Assembly (NCBI RefSeq): GCF_056746865.1
Contig: NZ_CM163382.1
DNA: 64,000 nucleotides
Strand: one strand, 5' to 3'
The notes beneath the pieces were generated by a model. That model was not told where the DNA came from, made no database searches, and worked only from the letters and a program-made list of their open reading frames with translations. Shown here in pieces: positions 22,781 through 23,673 of this stretch; position 1 is the stretch's first letter, and each line of letters opens with the position of its first letter. Both the position numbers and the translations under genes were made by a program.

Positions 22781-23302
22781 ATGTGGACAGTCAGCCTCGC
22801 TGAGGCGTTTATTCATGTATTCCAGGTCGCAGGCAAAATCTTCCTCGACATGATGACCGGGCTTATCCCGATGCTCATCTGCCTGCTGCTGGCCATCAAC
22901 TTCCTGATGAAGCTGGTTGGTACCGTGCGGATGGAGAAAGTTGCCGCCCTGCTCGGCCGCTCGCGCATTCTCACCTACGGCGTGCTGCCGGTGCTCGGCT
23001 GGTTCTTTATGAGCAGCCCCGGCGCGCTCACTTTAGGCAAACTCCTGCCCGAAAAGAGCAAGCCCGGCTATGAGGATGCGCTCGGCACCCCCGCCCATCC
23101 CCTCACCAGCCTGTTTCCCCACGTAGTGCCATCAGAGCTGTTTGTCTGGCTCGGCGTGGCTGCCGGGGTTAAGGCGCTCGGCCTGCCCGTCACCTCGCTG
23201 GCGCTGCGCTATATCGCCGCCGCCATGCTGATTGGTTTAATCCGCGGGATTATCACCGAGTACCTGTTCCTGCGGCTCAGCAAGCGGGGGAATGCGCCAT
23301 GA
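22781..23302 (+). CDS. PTS glucitol/sorbitol-family EIIC component (SrlA-like)
   Basis: 173 aa; ...GLIPMLICLLLAINFLMKLVG...LFPHVVPSELFVWLGVAAG parallels E. coli SrlA as recalled ([21 protein letters not shown]...LFPHINPGELFVYLGIASG); GGAGGA Shine-Dalgarno upstream. Confidence 0.8.
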   Translation: MWTVSLAEAFIHVFQVAGKIFLDMMTGLIPMLICLLLAINFLMKLVGTVRMEKVAALLGRSRILTYGVLPVLGWFFMSSPGALTLGKLLPEKSKPGYEDALGTPAHPLTSLFPHVVPSELFVWLGVAAGVKALGLPVTSLALRYIAAAMLIGLIRGIITEYLFLRLSKRGNAP

Positions 23303-23364
23303 TGATTTACTGAGCACGTATCGTCGCCATCGGGCTGTTTGTCGCCGATGGTCTCACCGACAAA

Positions 23365-23673
23365 ATGCTTATCACCTTCGACAGCAACGGGCCGAAGGAC
23401 TGTCTCGATTACTCGCTATCGCTGGAGCCGTCGTTCCGGGAAGAGAGCCTGATGATACTCCCCGGCGACCGCCTGCTGCTGGCGGGCCACGATTTTCTGG
23501 TGACTGCCGTCGGCAAAGGGGCACAGCAGGCGCTGTTTGAACTCGGCCACCTGACGCTGGTGTTCAATGGTGACCTGAATCCCTGCCATGTCGGCGCGGT
23601 TCATCTCTCCGGCCCGGTGCCGAACCTGCGCGACCTCCACGGCAATCTGGTGATTGAGGAGGGGCGGCCATGA
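23365..23673 (+). CDS. PTS glucitol/sorbitol-family EIIA component (SrlB-like); coordinates from first downstream ATG, true N-terminus interrupted by in-frame TGA
   Basis: MLITF...LGHLTLVFNG...VHLSGPVP matches the SrlB pattern. An ATG at 23302 overlapping the srlA-like stop gives M-I-Y then TGA (23311..23313), after which the frame continues ARIVAIGLFVADGLTDK-MLITF. Confidence 0.65.
   Translation: MLITFDSNGPKDCLDYSLSLEPSFREESLMILPGDRLLLAGHDFLVTAVGKGAQQALFELGHLTLVFNGDLNPCHVGAVHLSGPVPNLRDLHGNLVIEEGRP

Follow-up and report, generated by a model that had tools for sequence, protein, structure and literature searches.

In Escherichia coli, the EIIA-Gut component of the phosphotransferase system (PTS EIIA type 5) is SrlB, a protein of 123 aa encoded within the srlAEBD-gutM-srlR-gutQ operon; its annotated phosphorylation site is His43. 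The only family member with a solved structure is the PTS IIA-Gut component of Enterococcus faecalis (PDB 2F9H), an entry whose title does not characterise the function of the Enterococcus protein. Early nonsense codons do not always end the matter for a gene: translation can restart after them, as seen in classical lacI work, ATC being a very poor initiator, and UGA is the leakiest and least efficient stop codon in E. coli, with read-through in wild-type cells typically well below a few percent.

We analyzed a 64,000-nucleotide stretch of DNA, referred to here as the window; it is part of an E. coli chromosome and, wherever the two were compared, matches strain 118UI at 100% identity. In a genomic island at ssrA, it carries an EIIA-Gut-like gene that encodes 124 aa in its ancestral form and that, like srlB, is partnered with genes for SrlA-like and SrlE-like subunits reaching NCBIfam equivalog cutoffs. 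An intact canonical srlAEBD-gutM-srlR-gutQ operon lies approximately 63 kb away in the same genome. Compared to that operon, the island operon has the gene order A-B-E rather than the A-E-B order of K-12, as the earlier note on this DNA had correctly recognized; it ends with a Gfo/Idh/MocA enzyme rather than the SDR-type SrlD; and it is found without gutM, srlR and gutQ, that is, outside the srl operon context. The island EIIA has Leu where SrlB has His43, and its gene is interrupted by a premature stop in the window. Even when the intact Cys5 form of the protein is scored, it reaches 80.8 against the SrlB equivalog NF007696 (cutoff 165) and 77.9 against TIGR00849 (cutoff 189.55), models on which true SrlB scores 234 and 198, respectively. 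By sequence and fold, the island EIIA belongs to the EIIA-Gut domain family; it is not a SrlB equivalog even when intact, and the substrate of the operon is probably not glucitol.

The EIIA-Gut-like gene and its operon

The gene is the second of four in a plus-strand operon (22781-25674), the main features of which are the following:

22781-23302, plus strand: srlA-like PTS EIIC gene, 173 aa, intact (Pfam EII-GUT, 201 bits; a RefSeq CDS)
23286-23291, plus strand: Shine-Dalgarno sequence GGGGGA for the native EIIA starts (anti-SD duplex of -8.6 kcal/mol)
23299-23673, plus strand: EIIA-Gut-like gene in its ancestral extent, 124 codons and a stop, exactly the span filled by intact 124-aa orthologues
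23311-23313, plus strand: premature stop TGA; the mutated base is 23313, A here and C in intact alleles
23656-23662, plus strand: Shine-Dalgarno sequence GAGGAGG of the srlE-like gene (anti-SD of -12.7 kcal/mol, the strongest in the operon)
23670-24650, plus strand: srlE-like PTS EIIB/EIIC2 gene, 326 aa, intact (Pfam EIIBC-GUT_N and EIIBC-GUT_C)
24661-25674, plus strand: Gfo/Idh/MocA oxidoreductase gene, 337 aa, last in the operon, intact (Pfam GFO_IDH_MocA)

The srlA-like open reading frame (ORF) ends with the TGA at 23300-23302, which is overlapped by two tandem ATGs (23299-23301 and 23302-23304). These are followed by ATT TAC and then by an in-frame TGA at 23311-23313, the junction thus reading CC ATG ATG ATT TAC TGA. 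Seventeen sense codons come next (GCA CGT ATC GTC GCC ATC GGG CTG TTT GTC GCC GAT GGT CTC ACC GAC AAA), leading to the ATG at 23365, which is in frame with the TGA and 18 codons past it. The earlier note had placed this stop at codon 4 of an SrlB-like gene; the bases stand as described, but codon 4 holds only when counting from the second ATG, and in the 124-aa homologues the position is codon 5.

Conceptual translation of the gene gives MMIY*ARIVAIGLFVADGLTDKMLITF..., and the part after the stop matches Pfam PTSIIA_gutA (PF03829) from profile position 5 onward with 82 bits (cutoff of 25). When compared with the true SrlB that this genome encodes elsewhere, this translation aligns from residue 2/3 at 40% identity, in agreement with the N-terminal alignment proposed from the sequence at first reading. 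In the window, a complete EIIA-Gut domain is not found in one uninterrupted ORF from a usable start, given the TGA at codon 5 and the lack of a Shine-Dalgarno sequence at the starts downstream of it.

The other three genes of the operon are undecayed. The srlA-like product scores 168 bits against the NCBIfam SrlA equivalog (cutoff of 150), with a dN/dS of 0.09 versus relatives, and the srlE-like product scores 400.4 bits against the SrlE equivalog (cutoff of 400), with a dN/dS of 0.08-0.09; the Gfo/Idh/MocA gene, with a dN/dS of 0.07, reaches no NCBIfam equivalog. This condition would fit a recent event and would be equally compatible with an operon that is still in use. The srlE-like gene starts within an ATGA (23670-23673) that also contains the stop of EIIA, and because this gene has a strong Shine-Dalgarno sequence of its own, translational polarity should be limited; Rho-dependent polarity over the approximately 360 untranslated nucleotides is possible. 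A scan upstream of the srlA-like gene found no sigma-70-like promoter on the plus strand. Also upstream of the operon is a weak RybB-like Rfam match on the minus strand (22626-22665; 21 bits versus a gathering score of 40, E = 0.21), which is most likely due to chance.

Origin and distribution of the TGA

Intact alleles of the gene were found at several degrees of divergence. In strain E04, the operon of which is 88% identical to that of the window, an intact 124-aa CDS starts at the ATGA overlap and has TGC (Cys) at the position of the stop codon. Much closer are eight loci (L012 to L019) with only 1 to 4 differences from the EIIA gene DNA of the window. They encode P0045, which is exactly the conceptual window protein with Cys5 and is present on 33 contigs, under names from Salmonella bongori or Enterobacteriaceae. 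The amino acids of P0045 are identical at the other 123 positions, and its loci share with the window the same operon and the same neighboring hxlA-hxlB-PGI-ptsG-like cluster; they differ in having TGC at codon 5, an upstream regulatory module made of HTH_3 and HTH_35 genes, and a Gfo gene that is approximately 10% divergent. A search of a collection of 5.8 billion proteins yielded 42 relatives, and the full-length ones are 124 aa long with Cys at codon 5, or with Ser or Leu in two cases.

Two of the eight loci, L015 and L016, differ from the window over 23091-24353 at a single base, 23313 (C there, A here), so the stop is the product of one C-to-A transversion (TGC to TGA), and the haplotype on which it occurred survives in an intact version. 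The haplotype that matches in every other base reads TGC here, which shows that the TGA did not turn up at random in a meaningless frame. That the ancestral N terminus has been cut by a nonsense codon, as suggested before any comparison was made, is proven by the intact alleles with TGC, among them two loci identical over 1.26 kb except for that base; the stop stands where the orthologues in E04 and L012 to L019 have a sense codon, as in a nonsense pseudogene whose ancestral state is intact. The stop is recent on the scale of allele divergence because the EIIA gene is without other lesions and has a dN/dS of 0.07 versus the closest divergent intact allele, L005: no frameshifts, additional stops, or raised dN/dS were found in the gene, and it has only the one difference from L015/L016.

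A candidate for additional decay upstream was considered and rejected. Homology of the window to the intact twins ends 14 nt inside the srlA-like gene, and a deletion was suspected; E04, with an intact EIIA, has the upstream region of the window at 96% identity, identifying the latter as a different island variant.

Among 5,426 complete E. coli genomes, 131, from many laboratories and platforms, had the 65 nt around the stop at 100% identity, and the TGA was present with the same flanks in five of five JGI metagenome contigs. It always lies within one near-identical 24.6-kb island beside ssrA (8400-33000), which is approximately 100% identical in about 130 carrier genomes; the divergent intact allele was seen in only 2 of the complete genomes having the operon. 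The TGA carrier M12 belongs to ST69 (PMC13410964), and a second carrier is labeled ST69. This distribution indicates that the mutation arose once on one island version and was inherited clonally, in a lineage that includes ST69. As regards selection within the carrier lineage, the island is essentially invariant among carriers. A full-text literature search retrieved no description of the operon or of its stop codon.

The island itself is a mosaic that occupies 7961-33000 of the window directly after ssrA, with the tmRNA gene at 7961-8323 and an integrase gene at 8490-9737. Its GC content is 29% in a module with ComEC-like and helicase genes (16825-21786), 61% in the PTS operon, 37% in a DUF3883 gene (25967-27169), and 56% in the hxlA-hxlB-PGI-like-ptsG-like cluster with its SgrR-like regulator (27241-32730); it looks as though AT-rich cassettes of a defence-like kind were inserted between modules for sugar metabolism. 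The DEAD/DEAH helicase gene (19262-21786) is split into pieces of 400 aa and 427 aa in different frames, which RefSeq presents as two separate CDSs. The pieces meet at an A7 run (20448-20454), where a one-base frameshift would fuse '...EYLIREKK' to 'VSITTDDELISESKIIMEYIHKDF...'; this is probably a second gene disruption in the island or a slippage-prone site. The distal part of the island (33000-42200) holds fragments of an IS3 element and of a recombinase, copies of IS5, a tRNA-Ile gene, and a truncated autotransporter with AIDA repeats; RefSeq annotates each of these as partial or as a pseudogene, pointing to general erosion of this region.

Translation at and beyond the stop

Three features lie between the TGA and the native end of the gene or extend to it:

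23320-23673, plus strand: RefSeq/PGAP model WP_224110663.1, 117 aa, starting at a non-canonical ATC (anti-SD of -1.9 kcal/mol)
23326-23352, plus strand: 8-bp hairpin, considered as a SECIS candidate and rejected (dG of -12.8 kcal/mol; z of -0.34 versus shuffles)
23365-23673, plus strand: longest ORF with a canonical start after the stop, 102 aa from Met23, the usual GenBank submitter call (P0043; anti-SD of -2.8 kcal/mol)

The stretch from the TGA to the ATG at 23365 is devoid of ATG, GTG, and TTG codons. Neither this ATG nor the ATC at 23320 has a Shine-Dalgarno sequence; their pairing energies cannot be told apart from the within-ORF background (-2.6 ± 2.2 kcal/mol), compared to -8.6 kcal/mol for the native start. 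A restart downstream of the TGA is predicted to be unlikely. The product from ATG 23365, which the earlier note had estimated to be about 21 residues shorter, would have 102 aa, i.e., 22 residues fewer than the 124-aa form. The 117-aa model sequence and the 102-aa P0043 are each found on at least 1,000 contigs, and RefSeq does not flag the EIIA gene as a pseudogene. It was also observed that the PGAP start at an ATC without a Shine-Dalgarno sequence avoids a pseudogene call, with the same accession, WP_224110663.1, propagated to at least 1,000 contigs. The ATC-start model of RefSeq and the Met23-start model of GenBank are annotation workarounds for a disrupted gene.

We then considered what the segment upstream of Met23 contributes to the protein. 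An AlphaFold model of the Cys5 EIIA (pLDDT of 95.9) places strand β1 at residues 2-11 and helix α1 at residues 15-20, both upstream of Met23. In a Foldseek comparison, the model matched 2F9H over its full length with a TM score of 0.75-0.78 and a probability of 1.00; the two proteins have the same fold, including the N-terminal strand, although they are only 22% identical. The conserved Gly12, Gly72, Gly83-His84, and His102 are all encoded in the conceptual translation. Gly12, one of only two invariant residues (61 of 61 sequences in the family alignment), is upstream of the only canonical restart codon, and the same 61 sequences have conserved hydrophobic residues at Tyr/Phe4, Ile/Val8, and Ile/Val11. 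As a result of where the restarts lie, the 102-aa form is without β1, α1, and Gly12, and the 117-aa form is without most of β1, including Tyr4; His84 and His102 are downstream of both restart codons.

Natural counterparts of the short forms were not seen. An exhaustive HMMER scan of 1.84 billion representative sequences yielded 123 relatives, almost all of 116-127 aa and aligned from residues 1-8, and none of the 123 naturally starts at the equivalent of Met23. Homologues of that kind had been named at the outset as the observation that would count against a truncated N terminus. Three apparent cases (P0098, P0136, and P0120) were read at the DNA level: one proved to be a gene with a frameshift, lying in a degraded operon, and the starts of the other two proved under-called, with upstream in-frame DNA that encodes the missing segment.

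Altogether, a recent, lineage-specific nonsense mutation has most probably made the EIIA gene a pseudogene or a severe hypomorph, a reading favored by the conservation and structure of the lost segment and by the lack of a ribosome-binding site at either restart codon. The C-to-A change at 23313 turned codon 5 of the island gene from TGC (Cys) into a stop. In the proposed course of events, ribosomes would still start at the ATGs at 23299 and 23302, which are coupled to the srlA-like gene at its end and have a good Shine-Dalgarno sequence, and would make only Met-Met-Ile-Tyr before terminating. Little or no functional EIIA would be produced, leaving an accessory Gut-family PTS without its own phosphoryl-donor subunit, or nearly so; transport would then be lost unless another EIIA substitutes. 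The mutation was inherited with the island beside ssrA in a clonal lineage including ST69.

Disruption of this gene has also been observed elsewhere: EIIA orthologues in Klebsiella and others (P0038, P0036, P0040/P0041, and P0053) carry independent frameshifts and an in-frame deletion, some of them on tens of contigs, which suggests that EIIA may be lost recurrently in Enterobacteriaceae. The independent frameshifts in Klebsiella are as expected of an accessory gene with repeated losses and argue that EIIA is dispensable, as do the intact canonical srlAEBD genes in the same genome.

The main rival to the nonsense pseudogene is low-level read-through of a leaky UGA by near-cognate tRNA-Trp, which would give a full-length EIIA with Trp in place of Cys5 and keep the transporter at a reduced level. 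We regard this as unlikely, though it has several points on its side. Codon 5 is variable across the family (Cys in 12 of 61 sequences, Gln in 10, Glu in 10, and also Ser and Leu), so that a Trp there may be acceptable; neither the native start nor its Shine-Dalgarno sequence has changed, and the other operon genes are intact; and EIIA is a catalytic phosphocarrier, of which low amounts could suffice. However, the sequence gives no hint of a signal that promotes read-through, the hairpin after the stop being no more stable than shuffled sequences and present in the TGC allele too, and a Trp5 version of EIIA is absent from the protein collection.

A functional shortened EIIA made by re-initiation, either of 102 aa from ATG 23365 or of 117 aa from ATC 23320, is very improbable. 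Past the TGA, the ORF runs uninterrupted to its native stop codon and retains the conserved His84 and His102, the GenBank and RefSeq models use these very starts, and there is the precedent of lacI. These points are set against two starts without a Shine-Dalgarno sequence, one of them a very poor initiator, against the loss of the N-terminal elements described above, and against the family, in which 0 of 123 representatives naturally begin at these positions.

Recoding of the TGA as selenocysteine, as in a bacterial selenoprotein gene, would be an extremely remote explanation. It was considered because the ancestral codon is Cys and because an 8-bp hairpin, the loop of which starts with G, begins 13 nt past the TGA. 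The hairpin has z scores of -0.34 and -0.76 versus shuffled sequence, and it is identical in the TGC alleles L015 and L016 and hence predates the TGA; no Rfam match to it was found when 22400-24000 was scanned, even at E = 10. Two synonymous differences from E04 that strengthen the hairpin looked compensatory, but L015 and L016 show that both predate the stop. Neither a SECIS element downstream of the UGA nor a UGA at a conserved, important Cys was found: a Cys at residue 5 is neither conserved nor catalytic, relatives having Gln, Glu, Ser, or Leu, and the TGA is confined to a single clonal island version. Finally, a sequencing or assembly error, which the earlier note had left open, can be dismissed, as the TGA is identical in the 131 complete genomes, the 5 metagenome contigs, and at least 1,000 contigs for each derived gene call.

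Relation to SrlB and to other disrupted genes

If the EIIA gene is a pseudogene or severe hypomorph, as we favor, several practical points follow. Inventories of pan-genomes, metabolic models, and PTS components list as functional an EIIA whose gene, on the evidence, is broken, because the 117-aa and 102-aa models present it as intact. As a clean, single-base change, the stop marks one version of the island in ST69 and related genomes, and strains with the TGA are expected to test negative or weak for whatever substrate this uncharacterised Gut-family PTS takes up. Cross-complementation of the island EIIA by the canonical SrlB is conceivable. It is improbable that the inactivation was selected as the ST69-type lineage emerged, or that the intact EIIC/EIIB now rely on the canonical SrlB or on trace UGA read-through. 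Were selection the case, blocking the uptake of a toxic or inappropriately signaling sugar would be an example; were SrlB the donor, the island transporter would come under control of the srl operon.

Two further observations concern the EIIA-Gut family. Leu42 of the window subfamily aligns to His43 of SrlB, a column with His in 28 and Leu in 22 of the 61 aligned sequences, and His84 (SrlB His83) is conserved in 59 of 61. Either the annotated His43 site is not universal, or the window subfamily may work differently. In E. coli 2012C-4502, an intact orphan 124-aa EIIA-Gut-like gene (5019-5393 of locus L004) lies on a conjugative element, adjoining an amino-acid permease gene and a creatininase-family gene and without an EIIC or EIIB partner. 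An EIIA that stands alone in this way suggests regulation, not transport, as its role. Most of the 45 genomes that fall in the 80-90% identity band likely have the same orphan EIIA; one of these genomes was inspected.

Compared with the lineage-specific nonsense pseudogenes of clonal E. coli and with the restart proteins of lacI, the island EIIA gene has the same elements, i.e., a single-base nonsense change that became fixed within a clone, an ORF that is otherwise undecayed, and a possible restart downstream. The gene was disrupted recently, in one lineage, and in an ordinary way that involves no new mechanism, and nothing distinguishes it from other clonal nonsense pseudogenes except its rescue by an annotation pipeline through an ATC start.
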